Assembly (NCBI GenBank): GCA_017450885.1
Contig: JAFSSR010000023.1
Span: 1-37,975 of the forward strand
Length of the DNA stretch: 37,975 nt
Reading direction: 5' to 3'
Source: Clostridia bacterium
GTDB taxonomy: Bacteria > Bacillota > Clostridia > Oscillospirales > CAG-272
Shown: in pieces, positions 1 through 37,975 of the stretch
Numbering within the stretch: the stretch's first letter is position 1
Layout of the letters: every line of letters begins with the position of its first letter
Made by a program: the position numbers and the translations under genes
Notes under the pieces: model-generated
What the model was told of the DNA's origin: nothing
Database searches by the model: none
The model's input: only the letters and a program-made list of their open reading frames with translations

Positions 1-1419
1 AAGGAAGCGGAGATCCTTACGGGTCATCTTGCTATGCTTCAGGACCCGTTCATGGTCTCGCAGATGAACGATATGATCGACGGCGGATCGGTAGCCGAGG
101 CGGCGGCTGACACCGTCTGTACGATGTTCTACGATATGTTCGCCGGGATGGAAGACGAAATGATGCGCCAGCGCGCCTCTGATATAAAGGACATAAAGGA
201 CAGCCTTCTCGGACTGCTCCTCGGTGTAAAGACCGTGGATATCGCATCGGTCCCGGCGGGCTCGGTGCTGATTGCCAAGGACTTCACTCCGTCAATGACC
301 AGCCGCATCAACAAGGACAACGTCGCGGCGATAATCACGGAGGTCGGCGGCGTGACCAGCCATTCGGCGATCCTCGCCCGCGCGATGGGCATTCCCGCCG
401 CGCTCTCGGTCCCGAACTCCACGACGGCGATAAAGGACGGCGACAGCCTGATCGTAGACGGCTTCAAGGGCAAGGTCATAGTCGATCCGACCGACGCCGA
501 GATCAAGGAATACACCGCGCTTCAGGCGGCGTATCTCGAAGAGAAGGAGAGCCTGAAGGTATACTTCAACAAGCCCACGGTCACAAAGTCCGGAGCGCAT
601 AAGAAAGTTTATGGCAATATAGGCAAGGCGGAGGACGCGCAGAACGTAGTGCAGAACGGCGGGGAGGGGATAGGACTCTTCCGCACCGAGTTCCTGTTTA
701 TGGACCGCGACCACGCCCCGACCGAGGAGGAGCAGTTCGAGGCTTACTCTACTGTGGCAAAGGCGATGGGACAGCGGGAGGTCATAATCCGCACGCTGGA
801 CATCGGAGGCGACAAGGCGATAGACTATCTTGCGATCGAAAAGGAGGAGAACCCCTTCCTCGGGCATCGCGCCATCCGCTACTGCCTCGACAACAAGCCG
901 CTATATAAGACGCAGCTCCGCGCGATACTGCGCGCCGCGCAGTTTGGAGATATCAAGATCATGCTTCCGCTGGTCACGACGGTGGACGAGGTCAGGGAGG
1001 CGAAGGCTCTCGCCGAGGAATGCGCCGCCGAGCTCGAAGCGGAAGGGAAGGAGTTCCGCCGCGTCCCGGTAGGAATAATGGTGGAGACGCCGTCGGCGGC
1101 TCTCATCTCCGATCTTCTCGCAAAGGAGGCGGCGTTCTTCTCGATCGGCACAAACGATCTCACCGGGTATACGATGGCGGTCGATCGCGGCAACGCCAAG
1201 GTCAGCCACCTTTACGACGCCTTCCAGCCGAGCGTTCTCCGCGCCATCGAGATGACGATAAAGAACGCAAAGGCGGCGGGGATAATGGTCGGTATGTGCG
1301 GCGAGGCGGCGGCGGATCCGAGGCTGATCCCCAAGCTTGTCGAGTGGGGACTGGACGAATTTTCGGTCACGCCATCCTCGATACTCCGCACCCGCAAGAA
1401 CATCTGCGACTGCGAATGA
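1..1419 (+). CDS. ptsI: phosphoenolpyruvate-protein phosphotransferase (PTS enzyme I), C-terminal part; 5' end lies outside the window
   Basis: The frame is open from nt 1 (KEAEILTGHLAMLQDP...), so the Met at 34 is internal. PEP-utilising enzyme motifs are present (GGVTSHSAILARAMGIPA, TIM-barrel C-terminal domain, ...GTNDLTGY...). Stop TGA at 1417-1419. Confidence 0.9.
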   Translation, partial: KEAEILTGHLAMLQDPFMVSQMNDMIDGGSVAEAAADTVCTMFYDMFAGMEDEMMRQRASDIKDIKDSLLGLLLGVKTVDIASVPAGSVLIAKDFTPSMTSRINKDNVAAIITEVGGVTSHSAILARAMGIPAALSVPNSTTAIKDGDSLIVDGFKGKVIVDPTDAEIKEYTALQAAYLEEKESLKVYFNKPTVTKSGAHKKVYGNIGKAEDAQNVVQNGGEGIGLFRTEFLFMDRDHAPTEEEQFEAYSTVAKAMGQREVIIRTLDIGGDKAIDYLAIEKEENPFLGHRAIRYCLDNKPLYKTQLRAILRAAQFGDIKIMLPLVTTVDEVREAKALAEECAAELEAEGKEFRRVPVGIMVETPSAALISDLLAKEAAFFSIGTNDLTGYTMAVDRGNAKVSHLYDAFQPSVLRAIEMTIKNAKAAGIMVGMCGEAAADPRLIPKLVEWGLDEFSVTPSSILRTRKNICDCE

Positions 1420-3218: not shown

Positions 3219-4790
3219 ATGAACGGATTTCTCATTCCCATCTGCATCGCCGCTGGCGCGGCGGTGGTACTTATCATCTTCCTCTGCCGCATCTACAGGG
3301 TCGCCGACATCGACAAGGCCCTGATCATCACCGGCGGCAAGGAGCCCAAGATCAAGGTTTCGGGCGGATCGTTCGTCATTCCGATCTTCCGCAAGGCGCA
3401 GTACTTCGATCTCTGCATGCTGACCGTTACCGCAGATCGCGATGAGGTCAAGACCAAGACCTCGGTGCCCATAGTCATCGACTGGACGGCACAGATCAGA
3501 CCCGACACCGAGAACATGGACAACCTCAAAAAAGCGATCATCTCCTTCAAGGAGCGCGGACAGAACGGCATCATCAACGACGTCCGTCTGACCCTCACCG
3601 GCGCGGTGCGCGACATAGTCGCCTCCATGACCCCGGAAGAGGTGCTACGCGACAAGGTGGTGTTCGCCGACAACGTAAAGAAGATAGTCGCCGACGAGAT
3701 GGTCAACATGGGCATGGAGCTTGTCTCCCTGAACATTCAGGACATCACCGACAACAACAGGTACTACGACAACATCGCCGCCCTCGATATGGAGGACAAG
3801 CGCCGCGAGGCGGAGAACAAGAAATCGGTCGTCGACGAGGCGGTCCGCACCCAGAAGGCGGAGTCCGAAAAGGTGGCTTCGCAGAACGAGCTGGCTTCCG
3901 AGCTCGCCGTCGCCGAAAAGCGCAGGGACAACAACCTCAAGATCGCGGGCTTCAAGGCGGAGACCGACAAGGCTGACGCCGACGCCGCGATCGCCGGCGA
4001 ACTGCAGATGACCATCCGTCAGCAGGAGGTCACCGAGCAGCAGGGTCGCATCAACGTCATCAAGCAGGAGCAGGCAAACCTCGCGGCTCTCAAGGAGAAG
4101 GAGGTCATAGCCACCCGCGCCCAGGCTGAAAAGCAGAAGAACCAGATCGAGGCGGAGGCTCAGGCGAACGTTCGCAAGATCACCGCGGACGCTTCCGTAG
4201 AGGTCGCGTCCAAGGAGGCGAACGCCATCAAGATCACCGCCGAGGCTCAGGCTGAAAAGACCCGCAAGGAGGGCACCGCGGTCGCCGACGTGACCAAGCA
4301 GAAGGGTCTCGCGGAGGCTGAAGTCATCCGCCAGAAAGGTCTCGCGGAGGCGGAGGTCGAGAAGCAGAAGCTGATGGCTCAGGCGGAAGGCGAGCAGGCT
4401 CTCGCGGAAGCACGCGCTTCCAACGACAAGGTCAACTTCGAGATCGAAAAGATCAAGATCGAAAACGAGGCCAAGATCACCATCGCCACCAAGACCGCCG
4501 AGATCATGGCAAACATCGGTCAGAACGCCGAGTTCGTCAACATCGGCGGAGGCGCCACCGGCGCCGGAGCGACCGGCAACGTCCTGCTGGACACCCTCGC
4601 CGGGATCCCCGGTCTGATGAAGACCCTCAACGCCGAAAATCAGGCGCTCAACGGCAAGTCCTTCAACGACGAGCTCCGCAATCTTGTCGCCAGCCTCGCA
4701 GAGCCGGTAAAGGGCGTGCTGTCAAACACCACCAATACCACAGTCAACGAGGCGCCCGCGCAGGTCTGCGAAGCGCCGGCCGCAGAGTAA
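3219..4790 (+). CDS. flotillin / SPFH (band-7) domain membrane-microdomain protein with a long Ala/Glu/Lys-rich coiled-coil
   Basis: N-terminal TM helix, then an SPFH domain (IITGGKEPKIKVSGGSFVIPIFRKAQYFDL...) and about 250 aa of EA-rich heptad repeats, as in FloT/YuaG-type flotillins. RBS AAAGGAG. Confidence 0.85.
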   Translation: MNGFLIPICIAAGAAVVLIIFLCRIYRVADIDKALIITGGKEPKIKVSGGSFVIPIFRKAQYFDLCMLTVTADRDEVKTKTSVPIVIDWTAQIRPDTENMDNLKKAIISFKERGQNGIINDVRLTLTGAVRDIVASMTPEEVLRDKVVFADNVKKIVADEMVNMGMELVSLNIQDITDNNRYYDNIAALDMEDKRREAENKKSVVDEAVRTQKAESEKVASQNELASELAVAEKRRDNNLKIAGFKAETDKADADAAIAGELQMTIRQQEVTEQQGRINVIKQEQANLAALKEKEVIATRAQAEKQKNQIEAEAQANVRKITADASVEVASKEANAIKITAEAQAEKTRKEGTAVADVTKQKGLAEAEVIRQKGLAEAEVEKQKLMAQAEGEQALAEARASNDKVNFEIEKIKIENEAKITIATKTAEIMANIGQNAEFVNIGGGATGAGATGNVLLDTLAGIPGLMKTLNAENQALNGKSFNDELRNLVASLAEPVKGVLSNTTNTTVNEAPAQVCEAPAAE

Positions 4791-4798
4791 TTACCCAA

Positions 4799-4836
4799 GG
4801 CGGGAGTGAGCTTTGCCCACTCCCGCCGTCTTTATT
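4799..4836 (+). terminator. rho-independent terminator of the flotillin gene
   Basis: Stem GGCGGGAGTG(4799-4808)/CACTCCCGCC(4818-4827), followed by GTCTTTATT. Confidence 0.75.
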
Positions 4837-5000
4837 GTCGTCGCACCCAAACGGCGCTTCAACCGGTAGGGCTGGGTTTTAACCCCGCCGTCTTCAATGT
4901 CGTCCCGCCCAAACGCTGTCATTGCGAGGAGCGAAGCGACGCGGCAATCCGTTTTCCCGCCTTCGTTATCGTCGCATCCGAACGGCGTTCGACCGTCGCC
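4822..5000. repeat. three diverged tandem copies (period ~62-72 bp) of a unit CCCGCC(G)TCTTyaaTGTCGTCgCAyCCrAACGgcG-TTCrAcc
   Basis: Copies start at 4822, 4884 and 4956. Copy 2 carries the CAAACGCTGTCATTGCGAGGA variant. Confidence 0.6.
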
Positions 5001-5190
5001 TTCCCCATCGGGGGACCCGTTCCCCACAGGTCTCGGCGAGCTCGATCTGCCGGGGACCCCTAGGGGCGGTGTCGCCGAAGGCGACGGATGAGGAGCTCGC
5101 GGAGCGTGAAAACGAAATCGGTTGCTGATTTATCGTTCAGGGGCACGGATTGCCACAGCCCCTTTGGGGCTTCGCAATGACAGCGTTTGA
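4908..5190. repeat. MITE-like segment bounded by imperfect inverted repeats containing CAAACGCTGTCATTGCGA (4910-4927 forward, 5172-5189 reverse) plus an inner GGCAATCCGT inverted pair
   Basis: Direct reading: ...CCCAAACGCTGTCATTGCGAGGAGCGAAGCGACGCGGCAATCCGTT... pairs with ...CACGGATTGCCACAGCCCCTTTGGGGCTTCGCAATGACAGCGTTTGAGCG. Confidence 0.5.
5071..5085. repeat. GTCGCC-GAA-GGCGAC hairpin (member of a recurring 6-bp-stem/3-nt-loop family; flank GGTG...GG)
   Basis: Further copies lie at 5206-5220 (loop TTC), 5376-5390 (TTC), 5510-5524 (TGC) and 37779-37793 (TGC). The stem is invariant and the loop varies. Confidence 0.7.
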
Positions 5191-5255
5191 GCGTGGAAAT
5201 GATGTGTCGCCTTCGGCGACGCTATCGAAAAGCTCCTTCCCCCGCGGCGCAGCCG

Positions 5256-5297
5256 TGGGGAGGGGGAGCTCCCGGCGGAGCCGGGTGAGGGGAGGGG
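5256..5297. repeat. left G-rich arm: TGGGGAGGGGGAG - hairpin CCCGGCGGAGCCGGG - TGAGGGGAGGGG; inverted partner at 5498-5540
   Basis: The 12-mer TGAGGGGAGGGG (5286-5297) is exactly reverse-complementary to CCCCTCCCCTCA (5498-5509). TGGGGAGGGGGA pairs with CCCCCTCCCCCA (5529-5540) with a 1-nt difference. Both arms carry a hairpin at the equivalent position. Confidence 0.65.
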
Positions 5298-5330
5298 TAA
5301 GGCTCGCTCCGCTCGCAATGAAGACTTAAG

Positions 5331-5369
5331 AATGAATAATGAAGAATGAATAATGAATAATGAATAATT
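5331..5369. repeat. heptamer micro-tandem repeat (GAATAAT)n, about 5.5 units, immediately 5' of a GGTGTCGCCTTCGGCGACGG hairpin
   Basis: Direct reading: GAAT GAATAAT GAAGAAT GAATAAT GAATAAT GAATAAT. Confidence 0.8.
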
Positions 5370-5397
5370 TCGGTGTCGCCTTCGGCGACGGTCTTAA

Positions 5398-5490
5398 CGA
5401 GATTTCGCCTGCGGCGAAACGAGATTTTTGCTTTCGCAAAAGCGAGATTTGCGCCTTGTGGCGCAAGCGAGATTCGCGGCGAAGCCGCGA
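5398..5490. repeat. array of four units, each an invariant CGAGATT linker followed by a different perfect hairpin (stems TTTCGCC/GGCGAAA, TTTTGC/GCAAAA, TTGCGCC/GGCGCAA, TCGCGGC/GCCGCGA)
   Basis: Linkers are at 5398-5404, 5420-5426, 5443-5449 and 5468-5474. Each intervening 15-18 nt segment is a self-complementary stem-loop whose sequence differs between units. Confidence 0.75.
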
Positions 5491-5497
5491 GCGGACG

Positions 5498-5540
5498 CCC
5501 CTCCCCTCAGTCGCCTGCGGCGACAGATCCCCCTCCCCCA
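5498..5540. repeat. right C-rich arm (reverse-complement copy of the 5256-5297 module) with embedded GTCGCC-TGC-GGCGAC hairpin
   Basis: See the left arm at 5256-5297. Together the arms bracket the 5298-5497 core holding the heptamer repeats and the CGAGATT hairpin array. Confidence 0.65.
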
Positions 5541-5621
5541 AGGGGAAAGCGGCGAGCCTAACGGCTGATGCTAATGACTTTCAACTTATACCCTGCGCCT
5601 CTCCATATCTGAAACTCGATA

Positions 5622-7190
5622 TCAAACTATCTCGTCTATCTCCCCGTCGTCAAGGAGCAGAAGCACAGCGCAGACCGCGGGATCGTTGAGAGGCGAGGTC
5701 CCGGCGAGGCGCTCGGACGCCAGACGCGAGGCGACGGCGGAGTACCTGCGGTAGTAGGGATCCGCCTTGACGGCGCAGCGGAGCATCAGGCAGTCGAGGG
5801 TGTCAGTCAGCTTTTGTTCCTCCTTCAGGAGAGAGACGAACATATCGCTGACAAGCGGAGCGGGATAGATATCGGAGCCGATGAACCGCGAATAGAGCAC
5901 GGGCTTGAGATCCTTTTTGATCTTGCGCGGCGTATTCGGGACGTATCCGCCTTTCGTGTAGCAGTCGAGGCAGAGATAAACGCCCTGATCGCGCGCCGTC
6001 CAGCTTCCCGCTTCACCGCAGGCGGCGCAGAAGCCGCGGCGGAAGGCGGGGCGTTTGAGATTGGCGGCTCTCCCAGCAGAATACGCGGCGGGAGATCCGT
6101 CCGGGATGAAATTGTAAGCAAAGCGCGAGCGCGCGTTTTCGGCTGTCTTTATCAGATCATCCGGTATGTCTTTGCGGCGGCGTTTGGCGAGCTTATCGGC
6201 GGCGGCAGCGAACGCCGCCGTCGCAAAGGCGGAGCCGTATTCGGGAAAGGTCCGCGCGACGGGATCCTTCTCCCACCCGCCGAAGGGCGCCATACCGTAT
6301 CGCAAGGAGTCCGCCGCTCCGCGGACGAGGTCCGCCGCCGCGCGGAGGTCGTATTCGCCCAACTGCTTCAGCGGCAGATCGAGAGCCGCGAGCGCAAAGA
6401 GCGAACGGGCGAGCGGCGAGGCGAAGACGCCTGAGCCCTGACCGTCGCCCGAAGAAAGGGCGATACACCGGCGCAGTATTTCGAGAGCGTCTCCGTATCT
6501 TTTTCGCGCCGCGTAAGCCCTTACGGCGAGGTATTGCGCAAACGGATCGGCGGGCGATCCGCCTGTTTCGGAGAATACCAACCCGTCCGGAGTCCGCAGC
6601 GAGTCCAGAGCGTCGAGCAGCGCGTCGGAAGAAGAGCTTTCCGTTCGTTCGGCGGAAAACCGTTCAAATCCGGGCTGATCGCTTACAGAGACCGCCGCCG
6701 ACGAGCGCTTCAAAAGCTCGTTCGGATCATCGCCGACGCAGAAAACGGCGTATCCCGTTCCTCCGGTAAAGGTCAACTCATCCCCGCCGCACCGGACGGC
6801 GCCGTAAAGCGAGACCGCGAGAAAGCAGCCGCGGCTTTCGATAAGCAAAACGCTGAACGGCTCGCCGCGCGACGATCCGCACACGGGAGCGTACGTCTTT
6901 GCGCCGGCGGACGGGATTATCCCGTATGTGATCTCCGGCGCGGCGCAGACGGCGCGCAGAATAACGGCGTTGAGGTCGCCGCAGCCGGTTGCCGACAGCT
7001 CGGCGAGCTTCATACCGCCCGACGAGAATTCTATCTTTCCGCGGAGAAAGGAAACGCCGTCCCCCGGGACGGAACGGGGCTCCAGAGCGCAGAACGTGAC
7101 GCCGCGCGCGGGCGAGCGCACGGCGGAGACTCCGGCTCCTTCCACGGCGCAGACTATATCCTTTCCGCCCGCTATCCTTCTTTTCACCAT
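5622..7190 (-). CDS. hypothetical 522-aa protein; central region with prenyltransferase/terpene-cyclase-like alpha/alpha-toroid repeat signatures (GG[FW]...aromatic/Ala-rich) and a C-terminal C-x2-C...C-x2-C zinc-ribbon
   Basis: Start ATG 7188-7190 overlaps the trmL stop (ATGGTGA), indicating translational coupling. Motifs present: APFGGWEKDP, ETGGSPADPFAQYLAVRAY, SGDGQGSGVFASPLARSLFALAAL, and CAACGEAGSWTARDQGVYLCLDC. There is no signal peptide. The domain calls are tentative. Confidence 0.6.
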   Translation of the reverse strand: MVKRRIAGGKDIVCAVEGAGVSAVRSPARGVTFCALEPRSVPGDGVSFLRGKIEFSSGGMKLAELSATGCGDLNAVILRAVCAAPEITYGIIPSAGAKTYAPVCGSSRGEPFSVLLIESRGCFLAVSLYGAVRCGGDELTFTGGTGYAVFCVGDDPNELLKRSSAAVSVSDQPGFERFSAERTESSSSDALLDALDSLRTPDGLVFSETGGSPADPFAQYLAVRAYAARKRYGDALEILRRCIALSSGDGQGSGVFASPLARSLFALAALDLPLKQLGEYDLRAAADLVRGAADSLRYGMAPFGGWEKDPVARTFPEYGSAFATAAFAAAADKLAKRRRKDIPDDLIKTAENARSRFAYNFIPDGSPAAYSAGRAANLKRPAFRRGFCAACGEAGSWTARDQGVYLCLDCYTKGGYVPNTPRKIKKDLKPVLYSRFIGSDIYPAPLVSDMFVSLLKEEQKLTDTLDCLMLRCAVKADPYYRRYSAVASRLASERLAGTSPLNDPAVCAVLLLLDDGEIDEIV

Positions 7191-7690
7191 AGGCCGGCTC
7201 TTTCACCGGTCAGGTGACCCGCGGTCTCGAGCCCGGCAAAGCCGCGCTGACGGAGTATCTCGTAGGTCGCGACCGCCACGGTGTTCGAGAGGTTGAGACT
7301 GCGCAGGGCGGGGCGCATCGGAAGGCGAACGCATTCGTCGGGATGGGCGGCGAGCAGGTCCTCCGGCAGGCCCTTGGTCTCTTTGCCGAAAAGGATGAAG
7401 ACCCGTTCGGGATAGGCGACGTCGGAATAGCAGTTTTTGCCCTTCGTGGTGAAGAAGTACATCTTCTCGCCGGCGTTCGCCCGCATGAATTCGCCGAGCG
7501 AGGGATAGTAGGTTATATCCAGCTCGTGCCAGTAGTCGAGGCCGGCGCGTTTGAGCTTGGCGTCGTCGATGCGAAAGCCCATCGGCTCGACCAGATGGAG
7601 CGCCGCTCCGGTCACAGCGCAGGTGCGGGCGATATTCCCGGTGTTCTGCGGGATCTCCGGCTCGACCAATACGATGTTTATATTGCTCAT
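7184..7690 (-). CDS. trmL: tRNA (cytidine/uridine-2'-O-)-methyltransferase TrmL (SpoU/TrmH family)
   Basis: MSNINIVLVEPEIPQNTGNIARTCAVTGAALHLV... is the typical TrmL N-terminus. The internal Met (ATG 7688-7690) is preferred over the ORF-track start at 7741. Length is 168 aa. Confidence 0.85.
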   Translation of the reverse strand: MSNINIVLVEPEIPQNTGNIARTCAVTGAALHLVEPMGFRIDDAKLKRAGLDYWHELDITYYPSLGEFMRANAGEKMYFFTTKGKNCYSDVAYPERVFILFGKETKGLPEDLLAAHPDECVRLPMRPALRSLNLSNTVAVATYEILRQRGFAGLETAGHLTGERAGLW

Positions 7691-7776
7691 ATTTTCTCCC
7701 CAGATCATGATGCTTTTATTATAATCAAAATCCCGCTCCATTGCAATGACGGAGACGAGATTTTTACAATTTGTGA

Positions 7777-7805
7777 TTTACTTTTTAAATAAAATATGGT
7801 ATACT
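7777..7805 (+). promoter_or_regulatory. putative secA promoter (weak -35 TTTACT, 17-nt spacer, extended -10 TGgTATACT)
   Basis: Lies in the divergent intergenic region between trmL and secA; -10 TATACT is at 7800-7805. Confidence 0.4.
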
Positions 7806-7845
7806 AATCTAAATATGTACATTTTTAAGAAAGCGAGAAATCATT

Positions 7846-10617
<2,772 letters not shown>

Positions 10618-10628
10618 AAGACCAAAAC

Positions 10629-10661
10629 GCCCCGCGGATCCTCCGCGGGGCGATCTTTTTC
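10629..10661 (+). terminator. rho-independent terminator of secA
   Basis: Stem GCCCCGCGG/CCGCGGGGC with loop ATCCT, then GATCTTTTT. Confidence 0.8.
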
Positions 10662-10835
10662 CGTGTCCCTTATACTTTGTTACTGATAAAAAAGACGGCG
10701 TAGCCGTCGCGGATCGCCGCTTCTGCGGCGTTATTTTTCGCCGCGATCGGAACTGCGCCGCTTCGTCACGCGGGCGATCCGCGCGTGATCCGGCGCAAAG
10801 CCATTTCGGCGCGGTACATCCGCGCCGAAAAAACG

Positions 10836-13891: not shown

Positions 13892-14869
13892 TCACAGATT
13901 TTGCTTGTACCAGTCGATCGCCAGCTTGATGCCGTCGGCAAAGCTGTAGTCGGGATCGTAGCCGAGCAGACGGCGGGCTTTTGAGATATCGGCGTTGCTG
14001 TGCTTGATGTCCCCCCTGCGGTCGGGACCGAAGATCGGCTCCTTGCCGGGACAGCCGAGCGCGTCGCAGATACAGTTGTAAACGTCGATAAGATACTCCC
14101 GTCCGCCGTAAGCCACGTTGAACGCCTCGCCCGAAGCCTCGTCGGGAGCAAGGCAGGCGCGCAGGTTGGCCTCGATCACGTTGTCGACGTAGGTGAAATC
14201 GCGGCTCTGTCTGCCGTCGCCGTTGATGGTCGGCGTTTCGCCGTTCATCAGCATTTTTATGAACTTCGGGATGACCGCGGCGTACGCTCCGTCGGGATCC
14301 TGTCTGCGTCCGAAAACGTTGAAGTAGCGCAGCCCGACGGTGCGGAGGCCGTAGAGCTTGGTATATAACTTCGCGTATTCCTCGTTGACTCGCTTGGTCA
14401 GCGCGTACGGGGAGAGCAGATTGCCCTCGACCCCCTCCTGCTTCGGCAGGCGGGCCTCGTCTCCGTACACCGACGAGCTGGACGCGTAGACGAAGGTCTT
14501 TACTCCCGCCTCGCGGGAAGCCTCCAGCATATTGAGCGTGCCCATTATATTGTTGCGCTCGTAGAAAAGCGGCATCTCTATGCTGCGCGGGACGCTGCCC
14601 CACGCCGCCTCGTTGAGAACGTAGTCGACCCCGTCCGCCGCGCGGCGGCAGGTGTCGAGGTCCTTGATGTCCCCCTCGATAAAGGCGTAGCGTTCGTTGC
14701 CGTCGAAAAGATCGACGTTTTTACGCTTGCCGGTGGAAAGGTCGTCGAGACAGCGCACCCGGCATCCTTTGCCGAGTATCGCCTCGCAGAGGTTGGAGCC
14801 TATGAACCCCGCGCCTCCGGTCACCAGAAATACGGTTTCCTCGGGAAACTGCAGCTCTTTAAATCCCAT
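13892..14869 (-). CDS. NAD-dependent nucleotide-sugar 4-epimerase (WbpP/TviC/CapD-like extended SDR)
   Basis: TGGAGFIGSNL Rossmann motif with ...LDDLSTG..., and a YxxxK catalytic region (SPYALTK). Confidence 0.8.
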   Translation of the reverse strand: MGFKELQFPEETVFLVTGGAGFIGSNLCEAILGKGCRVRCLDDLSTGKRKNVDLFDGNERYAFIEGDIKDLDTCRRAADGVDYVLNEAAWGSVPRSIEMPLFYERNNIMGTLNMLEASREAGVKTFVYASSSSVYGDEARLPKQEGVEGNLLSPYALTKRVNEEYAKLYTKLYGLRTVGLRYFNVFGRRQDPDGAYAAVIPKFIKMLMNGETPTINGDGRQSRDFTYVDNVIEANLRACLAPDEASGEAFNVAYGGREYLIDVYNCICDALGCPGKEPIFGPDRRGDIKHSNADISKARRLLGYDPDYSFADGIKLAIDWYKQNL

Positions 14870-33540: not shown

Positions 33541-33584
33541 TAACGTTCTGACCGCGCCGGGACTCCGGGACGCCGACACGAACG

Positions 33585-33631
33585 AAAAAAAGGATCTGCG
33601 GGAATTCTTGAATTCCCGCAGATCCTTTTTC
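33585..33631. terminator. bidirectional rho-independent terminator (A-run, 16-bp palindromic stem, T-run)
   Basis: AAAAAAA GGATCTGCGGGAATTC TT GAATTCCCGCAGATCC TTTTT. Confidence 0.85.
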
Positions 33632-33694
33632 GGTTTGGCGCCCGGGACGAGACCTCGGGAGGCCTTTCCGCCGCGCCGCCGGGAGAAAGCCGGG

Positions 33695-36211: not shown

Positions 36212-37585
36212 ATGAAAAAACTGATATGCTTATTCATCGCTTTACTGATGATTGCCGGACTGTGCGCCTGCAGCGCGGCGAAAAGCGAGTCGTCAGTAGA
36301 CGCTGACCCGGCGGAAAAGCCCGCCTCCCTCGAGCCGACCGACATAAAAGGCTCCGGCGCGGACGGGGAAGAAGCCGAGCCGAGCGCCGCAAAGGATATG
36401 TTTGCTTCGAAGGCGGAAGATATCGCTCCCGAAGGCGGGGCGAAGAGCGCGGAACGCGACGACGGCGGATACGCGGTGATCGACGATCCGGTCGTCCCGA
36501 GCTCTCCCGATATCGCCGCGGACTTCGGCGGAGAGGACGGAGGCGTCCCGGGCGACGAGCCGCCAGCGGACACGACTCCCATCGAGGCGGGGACCCTTAC
36601 CGCCGGCGAGTGGAAGGACAACGACAACTACGATTTCTGGCGTAAGGTGCTTGCGCGCGAAGAATGGGCGGGTCTCGCAAGGCTCTGGAAGATGGACGTG
36701 ACCAAGCGCTTCGCGGTGACGGTATCGGACGGTCAGAACACCGCGAAGAACGCCGCGGTAGAATTGCTCGACGCCGAAGGGAACGTGATATCCCGCGCCG
36801 TGACCGACTCCTACGGCAAGGCTTATCTGTATTACGATATCGACTCGGCGGGGAAGGTCCCGGCGGCGGTATCGGTCGGCGGCGCGCAGCATGAGATCAC
36901 CGCGGATCAGCTCGCGGCGGGAGGCGCGACCGTCTCCGGCGCGGGCGAGCGCTATACCAAGCTCGACCTTATGTTCACCACCGATACGACCGGCTCCATG
37001 ACCGACGAGCTCGAATACCTGAAGAAGGAGATGGGCAGCGTCATTGAGCGTGTCGCCGGCGAAAACGACGGACTTGACATACGCCTGTCGGTCAACTTCT
37101 ACCGCGACGAAGGCGATGAGTACGTCGTGCGCAGCTTCGCCTTCAGCGGCGATATAGAAGAGGTCATCCGTCAGCTCGATCAGCAGTTCAGCGACGGCGG
37201 CGGCGACTACCCCGAGGCGGTCCACACCGCGCTCGATGATTCTGTAAACGGTCACGACTGGCGCGACGACGCGGTCAAGCTGCTCTTCCTCACCCTCGAC
37301 GCTCCCGGACACAGCGACGCGGCGGGCGTGCCTGAAAGCGTGCGCGCGTCTGTCGTCGCCGCGGCGGCGAAGGGCATCCGCATAATCCCCGTGGCGGCGA
37401 GCGGCGTCGATACCGAGACGGAATTCATGCTCCGCGCCATGGCGTGCGCCACCGGCGGGACCTACATCTTCCTCACCGATCATTCCGGCGTGGGCGAGAG
37501 CCACCTTGAGCCTACCATCGGCGATTACAACGTGAAAAAGCTGAACGATCTGCTTGTCAAGGTCATAAGCGAGTATTGCAAGTAA
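36212..37585 (+). CDS. secreted/lipoprotein with von Willebrand factor type A (vWA) domain (MIDAS DxTxS variant DTTGS)
   Basis: Signal peptide with a Cys-containing lipobox-like LMIAGLCAC, and an acidic low-complexity linker. The vWA core reads LDLMFTTDTTGSMTDELEYLK...IRIIPVAASG. Confidence 0.75.
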   Translation: MKKLICLFIALLMIAGLCACSAAKSESSVDADPAEKPASLEPTDIKGSGADGEEAEPSAAKDMFASKAEDIAPEGGAKSAERDDGGYAVIDDPVVPSSPDIAADFGGEDGGVPGDEPPADTTPIEAGTLTAGEWKDNDNYDFWRKVLAREEWAGLARLWKMDVTKRFAVTVSDGQNTAKNAAVELLDAEGNVISRAVTDSYGKAYLYYDIDSAGKVPAAVSVGGAQHEITADQLAAGGATVSGAGERYTKLDLMFTTDTTGSMTDELEYLKKEMGSVIERVAGENDGLDIRLSVNFYRDEGDEYVVRSFAFSGDIEEVIRQLDQQFSDGGGDYPEAVHTALDDSVNGHDWRDDAVKLLFLTLDAPGHSDAAGVPESVRASVVAAAAKGIRIIPVAASGVDTETEFMLRAMACATGGTYIFLTDHSGVGESHLEPTIGDYNVKKLNDLLVKVISEYCK

Positions 37586-37604
37586 GCCGCGGAGTGTCGG
37601 CGGA

Positions 37605-37630
37605 GAAGTTCAAAGGACGAAGTTCAAAGA
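37605..37630. repeat. direct repeat GAAGTTCAAAG x2 (period 15)
   Basis: The two copies lie at 37605-37615 and 37620-37630. Confidence 0.6.
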
Positions 37631-37716
37631 CGTGTCGCCAGTCGCCGGCGTGGCCGGACCAAAATATCCGCAGTATGCTCGGAGCGTACGTGTCGCTTGT
37701 ATGCACGCTCCGCCGC

Positions 37717-37793
37717 GCGACGCGGCAATCCGTTCCGAAATAATTAGGAATTAGGAATGAGGAATGAGGAATTGCGGTGTCGCCTGCGGCGAC
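37717..37793. repeat. module set shared with the 4791-5621 cluster: GCGACGCGGCAATCCGTT (37717-37734), heptamer tandem ATTAGGA/ATGAGGA x4 (37743-37770), and a GGTGTCGCC-TGC-GGCGACGAA hairpin (37779-37793)
   Basis: The order (heptamer repeats then GGTGTCGCCNNNGGCGACG hairpin) matches 5331-5392. GCGACGCGGCAATCCGTT matches 4932-4953. Confidence 0.7.
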
Positions 37794-37833
37794 GAATAAT
37801 TCGGAAAAGTAAGGCGCTGTAACTCCGTTTCCG

Positions 37834-37975
37834 CACCCAAACGCTGTCATTGCGAGGACCGGCGGGGCGCCGGAGCCGAAACGTGTATATCGACTCGTGC
37901 GAACACAAACGCCCGGTATGATATTCGAAGCGCCTTATTAACAACAAGCACCCAAACGCTGTCATTGCGAGGAGT
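37834..37975. repeat. two direct copies of CACCCAAACGCTGTCATTGCGAGGA (37834-37858, 37949-37974; 115-bp spacing), same motif as 4908-4930 and reverse-complement at 5166-5189; cluster continues past window end
   Basis: Exact 25/25 identity between the two copies. The window is truncated inside the second copy. Confidence 0.75.

Follow-up and report, generated by a model that had tools for sequence, protein, structure and literature searches.

TGTC-tagged REP-like hairpin repeats in an intergenic region of a Clostridia bacterium: a probable mosaic array at a gene-order breakpoint

Background

REPs (repetitive extragenic palindromes) count among the textbook features of Proteobacteria. Hairpin repeats of similar organization have been identified in a Clostridia bacterium, in a stretch of 37,975 nucleotides (contig JAFSSR010000023.1, assembly GCA_017450885.1; hereafter the window), where they crowd the gap between the convergent genes encoding a flotillin and a 522-aa protein. 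The main repeat unit carries a 5' TGTC tag. It fits a variant of the CGTC-tagged REP superfamily described by Di Nocera, De Gregorio & Rocco in 2013 (PMC3733652), found here in a phylum off the 2013 list, rather than a new kind of element.

Results

The intergenic region

The window (GC content 57%) is part of the ENA metagenome contig ERZ27256819:k141_1329456 (39,445 bp), which derives from a k141 metagenome assembly. The flotillin gene (3219-4790, + strand; Band_7/flotillin according to the source record and Pfam) and the open reading frame (ORF) encoding the 522-aa protein (5622-7190, - strand) converge on a gap of 831 bp (4791-5621), of which 4822-5545 is the repeat-filled core. A preliminary description made from the sequence had seen no plausible coding sequence here. 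In agreement, no gene is called in the source record between the two ORFs, and the nine small ORFs of the gap (59-109 aa) have no Pfam match even at E<=10. The gap as a whole is highly structured, the z-scores of its fold relative to dinucleotide shuffles being -9.1 (+ strand) and -11.7 (- strand). By our tally, which is an estimate, hairpins and repeats make up about 85% of 4791-5621. The early statement that nearly every base belongs to a module is thus an overstatement, as the tracts 5004-5065 and 5091-5142 (about 15% of the core) fall outside any recurring module.

TGTC repeats in the window

The key module has the layout CTGTCATTGCGA-[variable hairpin]-GGCAATCC, with the core TGTC-ATTGCGA...GCAAT-CC. 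Two full units are found in the gap. Unit A (4911-4954, + strand) reads AAACGC-TGTC-ATTGC-GA-GGAGCGAAGCGAC-GCG-GCAAT-CCG, and scores 54.3 bits (E 3e-12) with the covariance model R1 described below. Unit B (5143-5188, - strand; 55.7 bits, E 1.4e-12) is the inverted partner of unit A, and has a different inner hairpin, AGCCCC-AAA-GGGGCT. Inner stems of the window units are 6 bp long (or GA-mismatched), and are closed by a 3-nt loop. The inverted CAAACGCTGTCATTGCGA pair of the preliminary description corresponds to arms of 22 nt (4906-4927 and 5172-5193) which are 95% complementary. Allowing for up to three mismatches, the 21-mer of this pair occurs four times in the window, and never in 100 shuffles.

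Units A and B, and the 188-nt spacer between them, form an inverted dimer with the tags outermost (4904-5195). As DNA, the dimer folds into one hairpin of about 290 nt (-86.5 kcal/mol, z -7.15) in which CAAACGCTGTCATTGCGAGG and GGCAATCCGT pair arm-to-arm with their complements, and the same domain is found in the RNA fold. Because of this single long hairpin with paired arms, the dimer behaves like a REPIN (REP doublet forming a hairpin). A third REP copy (5293-5323, - strand; ...GCTCGCTCCGCTCGCAATGAAGAC) is degenerate and truncated. It scores below the R1 threshold, and is recognized by the TCATTGCGAG/CTCGCAATGA inverted repeat (10 nt, 100%), the remainder having been read by eye. The three copies of the gap are separated by segments of 188 nt and about 105 nt. 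TGTC is found directly 5' of ATTGC in 4/4 window copies. In translation, the window REP reads VIARSEATRQS (GTCATTGCGAGG...GGCAATCC).

Several modules of the gap recur about 32 kb away, at 37586-37975, downstream from the gene encoding a vWA protein (36212-37585, + strand). The recurrence had been reported for the whole set. It holds for the REP 5' half (37838 and 37953), for GACGCGGCAATCCGT (37719) and GCGGTGTCGCCTGCGGCGAC (37774), and for the 7-nt array, made of another unit; it does not hold for the CGAGATT array and the 65-bp units (see below). In the first element (37719-37797, + strand), a REP 3' half without its partner (GACGCGGCAATCCGT) comes before heptads of the type AATTAGG/AATGAGG (37742-37773), and these before the hairpin GGTGTCGCCTGCGGCGACG. 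A defective REP follows (37839-37881, + strand; R1 11.5 bits), in which the 5' half is intact, the inner hairpin is CCGGCG-GGG-CGCCGG and the GCAAT 3' arm is missing. About 70 nt beyond, a further REP 5' half (37954-37971, + strand; R1 7.6 bits) belongs to an element cut by the window end at 37975. GCACCCAAACG precedes both these copies, at 37833 and 37948. The order is consequently REP half, about 100 nt, REP, about 70 nt, REP, and the intervening segments are unrelated. The other convergent gaps inspected (10618-10835 and 33541-33694) hold plain terminators made of a GC hairpin and a T tract, and two places are thus set apart by their repeat clusters, the post-flotillin gap and the post-vWA sequence, which runs off the window.

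Distribution and secondary structure of TGTC units

Loci other than the window are denoted below by L numbers. One genome per species was scanned with the exact 18-mer CAAACGCTGTCATTGCGA, which contains ATTGCGA. The scan, which is the source of the loci used for the model, returned 44 loci. About half are chance matches in coding sequences; the remaining ones share the unit (C/T)GTC-ATTGC-GA-[variable]-(R)GCAAT-C, which is found in Clostridia, Oscillospiraceae and Faecousia metagenome-assembled genomes (MAGs), in Alpha-, Gamma- and Deltaproteobacteria, Bacteroidota, Chloroflexi and one bacterium of the candidate phyla radiation. A dimer used as query also matches plasmids of Novosphingobium, Methylosinus, Methylocystis, Halomonas, Aulosira and Legionella, where the repeats are unannotated; in the Novosphingobium plasmid there is no annotation under or near them. 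BLAST matches of a dimer query include one in N. aromaticivorans DSM 12444.

Units are nearly always arranged as inverted pairs, + then -, 80-170 bp apart (L012, L013, L015, L022, L023, L039, L044). In a 5.4-kb contig of a Faecousia sp. MAG (L015) every intergenic gap, including a divergent one, hosts a TGTC REP dimer. Long open frames flank the gaps which host the units of L015, L022 and L044 (one of these gaps is divergent), and the dimers of these loci lie inside palindromic elements of 230-260 bp with termini AAATTGTTGTTTA...TAAACAACAATTT. Several contigs start or end within a REP copy. In L021 (about 1-100, reverse strand), truncated REP 5' halves form a head-to-tail run (GCTGTCATTGCGAACCAGCGCGCACGAAAATAC x3).

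Thirty units have been aligned (alignment A1) according to a proposed structure made of a 5-bp outer helix (ATTGC/GCAAT) and a 6-bp inner helix. In the inner helix, both sides have changed at 6/6 pairs, and pairing is kept in 85.6% of the cells. Covariation scores 0.459, whereas shuffles give 0.115 (0/500 reach the observed value) and slid partners at most 0.13. The outer helix is paired in 100% of the cells. The covariance model R1 identified 84 units in 357 kb of genome loci from many phyla, and further ones in L248, L184 and L231, and the covariation pattern of the 84-hit alignment matches that of the 30-unit alignment. Variants of the outer stem stay complementary, as in ATTCT/AGAAT (L047) and ATTCC/GGAAT (L019). 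The repeats are kept as hairpins through compensatory change.

Turnover in close relatives

Two loci with closely related flotillin genes, L046 (96% identical) and L047 (94%), have the genes upstream in common with the window. At the nucleotide level, they cease to match the window about 30 nt ahead of the flotillin stop codon, and the last ten or so flotillin codons differ accordingly among these relatives, a pattern which remodelling of the 3' end of the gene by the repeat array might have left. Downstream from flotillin, L046 features three GTAG hairpins and then an unrelated gene. At the same place L047 features a GTCATTCTGAGCG...GAAGAATC unit, a TGTC dimer with another interior, whose units have ATTCT/AGAAT or ATTGC stems, and different genes, SecA being in the opposite orientation. 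Since both repeats and genes differ downstream, the array lies where synteny breaks, and has a content subject to rapid turnover. Position and turnover fit mobile or recombinogenic repeats, and argue against a conserved RNA gene. In L048, which has an 87%-identical flotillin, a low-GC block with seven tRNA genes (Gly, Gln, Ser, Trp, Cys, His, Lys) is found at 7754-9047 instead of hairpin repeats.

The 13-kb contig L248 hosts three similar clusters of 400-900 bp with the module set of the window; clusters of this size are typical of related GC-rich Clostridia-like genomes. At 180-272 of L248, the apical loop of a TGTC REP holds an inverted pair of GTAG hairpins (TGTCATTGCGAAC-[GTAGGGCCGAGCATTGCTCGGCC...GCCGACCACTGGTCGGCGCTAC]-GGTGTGGCAATCC), as if a member of one repeat family had inserted into that of another.

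Other modules of the array

A terminator-like hairpin, GGCGGGAGTG-AGCTTTGCC-CACTCCCGCC followed by GTCTTTATT, lies just 3' of the flotillin stop (4799-4827, + strand). It is an inverted repeat which folds well as DNA (-13.5 kcal/mol, z -7.0), and was missed by a consensus terminator scan, its T tract being too weak. The three tandem units of about 65 bp noted at the outset are three diverged direct repeats of 32 nt (4822-4984, + strand), starting at 4822, 4884 and 4953 (spacing 62 and 69) and showing 100, 88 and 69% identity. Each has a hairpin 3' arm (CCCGCC) at its start and CCCAAACG, the sequence preceding the REP tag, at its end. The units may result from local duplication or be part of a longer element, and no copies of them were located elsewhere.

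A hairpin with a GTAG tag, GTAGGGCTGGG-TTTTAA-CCCCGCC (4866-4889, + strand), has been identified by regular expression and stem scan. It has 7/8 stem pairs and a weak fold of its own (z -1.2), and is the single window copy of a GTAG REP type abundant in related contigs. Similar GTAG units with a GTAGGGGC stem number about 30 in L248, and just after the L046 flotillin gene two were scored by regular expression, a third being visible by eye.

Triloop hairpins of the GTCGCC-NNN-GGCGAC type are found exactly at 5071, 5206, 5375, 5510 and 37779, against 0.01 expected. Of the five originally counted in the gap, four are thus exact; the fifth is a shorter TCGCC-TGC-GGCGA at 5405. The copy in the dimer spacer (GTCGCC-GAA-GGCGAC; 5066-5090, + strand, z -2.3) has a loop which is the complement of those of the other copies, and may alternatively pair with 4993-5003. 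The next one, GTGTCGCC-TTC-GGCGAC (5201-5224, + strand), is more stable (z -3.8). It is followed, at 5229-5286 (+ strand), by a C-rich/G-rich hairpin (GCTCCTTCCCCC...GGGGAGGGGGAGC) and by a CCCGGC-GGA-GCCGGG hairpin (z -3.5 and -2.6). The inverted G-rich and C-rich arms of the preliminary description are confirmed as a long inverted repeat (5257-5297 and 5498-5538; 41 nt, 80% complementary). Its C-rich right arm (CCCCTCCCC...CCCCCTCCCC) encloses a GTCGCC-TGC-GGCGAC hairpin, and is followed by a TCCCC-CAA-GGGGA hairpin (5498-5546, + strand; z -3.0). The CTCCTTCCCCC...GGGGAGGGGGAG hairpin type recurs in L248, where CCTCCCC/GGGGAGG gives 11 motif matches.

The CGAGATT-hairpin array likewise stands. 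It is composed of four units (5396-5492, + strand; Tandem Repeats Finder (TRF) periods 22 and 25), each a hairpin with a 7-bp stem (6 bp in the second), joined by an (A/G)CGAGA(TT) linker (DNA fold -29.1 kcal/mol, z -3.6). Stem sequences are unrelated, the linker is conserved and the hairpins fold separately. No further copy was found in 1.2 Mb of other loci. A viral scan with the pattern CGAGATT-N(12-18)-CGAGATT-N(12-18)-CGAGATT gave 78 unrelated tandem repeats, the pattern being too generic. One may speculate that the CGAG+ATT start of these units recalls the CGTC+ATT start of CGTC REPs.

Heptad arrays associated with GTCGCC hairpins

One of the GTCGCC hairpins is part of a composite structure (5317-5393, + strand), in which a purine-rich heptad array (GAATGAA/TAATGAA, about 7 units; TRF period 7), with stops in all three frames, precedes the conserved hairpin GGTGTCGCCTTCGGCGACG. 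The array includes the (GAATAAT)n tract of the preliminary description (period 7, 5.4 copies, 5331-5368). The longer hairpin form, GGTGTCGCCTKCGGCGACG, has a purine-rich 7-nt array at its 5' side at both window loci (5317-5393 and 37742-37797).

Scans of viral and metagenome contigs revealed the composite at about 30 loci, besides many chance matches in GC-rich coding sequences. The GAATAAT unit is identical in L244, L168, L248 and L195. Elsewhere heptads differ (GACAATT, GTGAATA, GGATAAG, GAGAAAT, GTGAAGA and more), as does AATTAGG at the second locus of the window. The best period is 7 in 24/27 arrays, and C accounts for 8% of their bases. Three-frame stops occur within 35 nt in 18/27 arrays, against 6.3 expected from shuffles and 1/27 on the opposite strand; the enrichment is suggestive only, because in terms of distinct unit types it amounts to about 7 of 14. 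About 40% of the copies are followed by a complementary array, and the two build a long stem around the conserved hairpin and a second, variable hairpin. Several arrays start within a few bases of the stop codon of the upstream ORF, and 21/29 composites lie in sense orientation behind it.

The composite was also found in a phage contig (L052, IMG/VR UViG_3300018475_000788) which corresponds to a structural module (portal, scaffold, major head, tape measure, tail). The arrangement (GACAATT)4 - GTGTCGCC-TYC-GGCGAC - about 30 nt - (ATTGTCC)4 occurs there four times, at about 1889-1907, 3887-3903, 8018-8036 and about 8676-8694. The copies occupy the gaps between portal and scaffold, scaffold and major head, and tape measure and tail genes, and one copy is reversed. 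In a locus from an unrelated community (L184, JGI Ga0180431_10012959), ATTGC-type TGTC REPs, dRS3-type ATTCCCGC-GAAA-GCGGGAAT REPs and GTGTCGCC hairpins are found together, at about 5480-8680 and on the reverse strand. In L184 GGATAAG heptads accompany the GTGTCGCC hairpins, and a conserved CGCGGGCAAGATGCCCGCG hairpin comes next. The module set accordingly co-occurs outside Clostridia. In both L184 and L164 the GTCGCC hairpin directly abuts a reversed dRS3-type REP (GGATTCCCGCTTTCGCGGGAATGACA). As L248 and L184 each host both families, heptad-associated hairpins and REPs travel together in different lineages.

Searches for known families

In the window, no Rfam 15 family was found at the gathering threshold, and at E<=10 only chance-level matches fall in the region. 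In 15 related loci the search yielded no relevant match, only a 5S rRNA. The 5S rRNA gene found by Rfam in L243 lies at 14398-14514; L243 also carries a composite of heptads and GTGTCGCC. Full-text literature searches with the literal repeats and peptides retrieved unrelated primers only, and a keyword search for miniature inverted-repeat transposable elements (MITEs) in Ruminococcaceae/Oscillospiraceae gave nothing relevant. In particular, the heptad-hairpin composite has no Rfam family, and no publication on it was found. Neither Rfam 15 nor the searchable literature offered a place for the C/G-rich hairpins, the CGAGATT array, or the GTCGCC triloop hairpin and the heptads associated with it.

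A few specific candidates have been discarded. For the conserved hairpins, attC sites, CRISPR repeats and ribozyme cores (hammerhead, twister) were rejected from the sequence, as the defining motifs are missing. Reading GATTnTAAT, 3' of the hairpin, as a sigma-70 promoter was rejected by eye, since the -35 element would fall in the hairpin stem. Small GIY-YIG nuclease genes, which the spurious peptides VIARSEATKQS and RFARNDG might flank, were looked for by six-frame regular expressions in all genome loci, and none was found; the L018 pair encloses no gene.

Neighbouring genes

The remaining genes of the window are ordinary chromosomal genes (HPr, PtsI, SpoU methylase, SecA, a polysaccharide-synthesis block, CNNM/CorC, TrkAH). 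For the 522-aa ORF, Pfam gives nothing at E<=1e-5. An overlap of 7 nt with the SpoU methylase gene downstream hints that the two may form an operon. A 33-nt tandem repeat (4296-4369; 2.2 copies, 74% matches) is located inside the flotillin coding sequence, in frame (11 codons).

Discussion

Relation to CGTC-tagged REPs

According to the text and tables of PMC3733652, the CGTC-tagged superfamily covers Neisseria dRS3, Rickettsia RPE-4/RPE-6 and many alphaproteobacterial REPs, CGTC-1 being equated with dRS3 and RPE-6. In the 2013 survey its carriers are Proteobacteria, Bacteroidetes/Chlorobi, Thermotogae and a spirochaete, with no Firmicutes among the strains; N. aromaticivorans DSM 12444 is a listed carrier. 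Units are described there as having an unpaired 5' CGTC tag, often TGTC, a stem of 8-9 bp in which positions 1 and 2 are almost invariably complementary A-T residues, a loop of 4-5 nt and an unpaired 3-nt tail with consensus CCA; atypical loops are reported for some Bradyrhizobium and Thermotogae families. They are mainly arranged as inverted (HH) dimers with 20-100-bp spacers, able to fold into one hairpin, head-to-tail arrangements being negligible. They are intergenic, located mainly 3' of genes, between convergent or co-directional ORFs, and have no dedicated transposase gene that they flank (PMC3733652).

The units described here share most of these traits, as far as they are set out in the text and tables of that survey. 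CGTC or TGTC is present in 30/30 aligned units, and the tag stays outside both R1 helices. The outer helix begins with an A-U and then a U-A pair in 30/30 units, and in 75 and 77, respectively, of 78 scored units (79 distinct rows, one gapped). The ATTCT/AGAAT and ATTCC/GGAAT variants retain these first two pairs. The window pair is inverted (4911, + strand, and 5188, - strand), and + then - pairs dominate in the relatives. Window copies sit after flotillin, in a convergent gap, and after the vWA gene. No transposase or recombinase domain was found in the large ORFs scanned across the 38-kb window. The spurious peptides run parallel frame by frame: VIPAKAGI, CHSRESGDP and DSRFCRND, listed for the R. 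conorii CGTC-1 REPs in the peptide table of PMC3733652, back-translate to GTCATTCCCGCGAAAGCGGGAATC, which has the same layout as the window unit and is found verbatim in L184 and L164, and VIPAKAGI is the counterpart of VIARSEATRQS. The tail is CCG in the window and CCC, CCA, CTC or CTG in relatives, the first C being near-invariant and the second frequent, against the published CCA. The host, a Clostridia MAG, and the embedding of some relatives' dimers in a 230-260-bp palindrome set these units apart from the published ones.

Several points weigh against this assignment. The outer stem of the window units is 5 bp long and followed by an internal loop of 2 x 3 nt, rather than being continuous over 8-9 bp, and the inner hairpin is variable and of 12-24 nt or more, in place of the published 4-5-nt loop. 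As the stem is interrupted and the apical hairpin enlarged and variable, the main unit is called a CGTC variant and not a plain member. Membership was judged from the text, Table 1 and the peptide table of PMC3733652 and from the dRS3 consensus. Pairing in the outer helix is not an independent test, as the loci were retrieved with an exact 18-mer including ATTGCGA, and covariation could stem from hairpin-templated repair of palindromic DNA rather than from selection. Taken alone, unit A is unstable as DNA (z +0.6) and unit B modestly stable (z -2.1). All-against-all BLAST of the loci, in which empty and filled sites were sought, gave no informative pair and no mobility event.

Relation to mosaic elements

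In neisserial intergenic mosaic elements (NIMEs), 20-bp dRS3 units (ATTCCCNNNNNNNNGGGAAT, consensus ATTCCC-N8-GGGAAT) separate segments of 50-150 bp which belong to many repeat families and vary among strains (PMC1797815). As of 2007, NIME arrays were unseen outside Neisseria (PMC1797815). The gap resembles them in that intergenic inverted-repeat units of the type ATTxxx-N-xxxAAT alternate with segments, repeat types are mixed, content varies between close relatives, and the arrays coincide with end-points of recombination. In contrast, the window unit, ATTGC-N(20-22)-GCAAT, has a large insert, only 2-3 units are present per array, while Neisseria arrays are long, and true ATTCCCGC-GAAA-GCGGGAAT units are found in the unrelated loci L184 and L164 and not in the window.

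GTAG REPs and REPINs are known as non-autonomous sequences processed as single-stranded hairpins by REP-associated tyrosine transposases (RAYTs), which are HUH Y1 tyrosine enzymes; the cognate RAYT gene is single-copy and as a rule has REPs at its sides. The window has in common with REPINs and bacterial interspersed mosaic elements (BIMEs) of Pseudomonas and E. coli the inverted REP pair forming a long hairpin with its spacer, the composite clusters and the GTAG hairpin at 4866. It differs in that the main unit is TGTC-tagged and not GTAG-tagged, and in that the regular alternation of REPs with defined linker motifs, a BIME feature, is not seen. No RAYT gene was found in the window contig, the only contig of the genome that was examined.

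The gap is probably best regarded as a REP array of the BIME/NIME kind, in which several hairpin repeat families, partly nested, have accumulated between convergent genes at a gene-order breakpoint. The likeness to BIME/REP clusters seen in the preliminary description therefore stands, in that palindromic repeats are extragenic, partly nested and found downstream from a gene. The alternative likeness to Correia elements is not supported. Correia elements and MITEs are similarly small, non-coding, dispersed, endowed with inverted ends and located near genes; the window lacks IS (insertion sequence)-like termini, the conserved part is a tagged hairpin and not a terminal inverted repeat (TIR) to which a transposase would bind, and no direct target-site duplication flanks the window dimer. 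The view that the motifs lie outside described families holds in part. The GTCGCC/heptad, C/G-rich and CGAGATT modules found no place in Rfam 15 or the searchable literature; two modules match well-characterised repeats, since the TGTC unit fits the architecture of CGTC REPs and 4866-4889 is a GTAG hairpin.

Alternative explanations

TGTC units might be the inner parts of the TIRs of a true MITE, the deletion derivative of an IS, moved by a DDE transposase, and the window copies would then be decayed. This explanation, which overlaps with that of a REP array and is compatible with it, seems rather unlikely. It would account for the dimers of Faecousia and of Clostridiales W1P1.011, which lie inside the palindromes with conserved AAATTGTTGTTTA...TAAACAACAATTT termini and also share a conserved interior (CCCCCGGTTAGAGGGGAAATGTACC...), for their MITE-like density and for the breaking of contigs at copies. 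Ten related elements inspected have inverted ends and, like the window dimer, no direct target-site duplication, the flanks extending the palindrome. Moreover, no transposase gene with these ends was seen at any of the loci, the window dimer lacks the outer termini, and across phyla only the TGTC...GCAATCC core is common. The location of the array exactly at a synteny breakpoint, with flotillin homology ending shortly before the stop codon, would also be expected of a recombination or integration hotspot, in which dRS3-like units are targets of a site-specific or IS110-type recombinase and the segments are scars of integration and excision. Neisserial filamentous phages integrate into dRS3 by means of a transposase/recombinase which the phage encodes, and NIME arrays are end-points of recombination (PMC1797815). 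The GTAG dimer nested in the L248 REP loop, and the alternation of REP fragments with unrelated segments of about 70-100 bp at the second locus, point in the same direction. We regard a hotspot of this sort as unlikely, because the window contains no recombinase gene or prophage, and no integration event was observed among three related contigs.

It is improbable that the repeats are selected RNA motifs rather than selfish DNA, belonging to at least one functional structured RNA, for instance a small RNA derived from a 3' untranslated region (UTR) or a protein sponge made of repeated hairpins and purine-rich heptads. Fold z-scores are very strong, the inner helix of the REPs shows compensatory changes, the four hairpins linked by CGAGATT have unrelated stem sequences, and the heptad-hairpin composite is C-poor on the strand which lies mostly in sense behind the upstream ORF (21/29). 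Both strands fold equally well, as palindromic DNA should, and the repeats, which have no Rfam match, are multi-copy, in both orientations, and found in convergent and also in divergent gaps. Relatives with 94-96% identity have other sequences in the orthologous gap, and two promoter-like consensus matches (9/12; 0.2 expected) were both judged unconvincing. A contig mis-joined or collapsed by MEGAHIT across short repeats is highly improbable. The source is a k141 metagenome assembly, and related contigs often end inside repeats, which indicates that assemblers struggle with them; yet long unique stretches separate the modules, the same flotillin protein is found in an NCBI 'Clostridia bacterium' MAG (as a hypothetical protein), and clusters of the same kind are seen in independent assemblies from other samples (L047, L248).

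Possible origin and roles

In the case of a REP array, the units would be non-autonomous DNA which spreads and turns over via single-stranded hairpin intermediates, processed by enzymes encoded elsewhere. For GTAG units, by analogy with known REPs, the enzyme would be a RAYT. Local duplication and recombination between copies may also contribute, and units would persist where they are least harmful, just past the 3' ends of genes. Transcription of the repeats, and a function as 3' stem-loops, are suggested by their location behind genes and by stems which tolerate GU pairs. As part of 3' UTRs, as they probably are, stem-loops would, by analogy, block 3' exonucleases and damp convergent read-through.

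With more reserve, the heptad-hairpin composite may be viewed as an undescribed class of dispersed elements shared by Clostridia, other bacteria and phages, a portable insulator which combines a stop in every frame with a hairpin; we consider this tentative and rather doubtful. As the period is 7, one stop codon per unit closes all three frames just 5' of the hairpin. If this were true, the composite could land at or in the 3' ends of genes, or between late genes of phages, without giving rise to fusion proteins.

Tagged hairpins of this architecture, in which the inner hairpin is expanded and covaries, are densely spread in uncultured Oscillospiraceae-like Clostridia. TGTC REPs build mosaic arrays at synteny breakpoints, and in several lineages co-occur with GTAG REPs and with a second hairpin family, that of the GTCGCC hairpins and heptads, which is shared with a phage. 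In practical terms, these repeats break short-read assemblies, create spurious ORFs and mark recombination-prone sites. No mobilising enzyme is known for CGTC REPs, according to the text of PMC3733652, and the lineages in which the repeats reach very high copy number are therefore good places to look for one.

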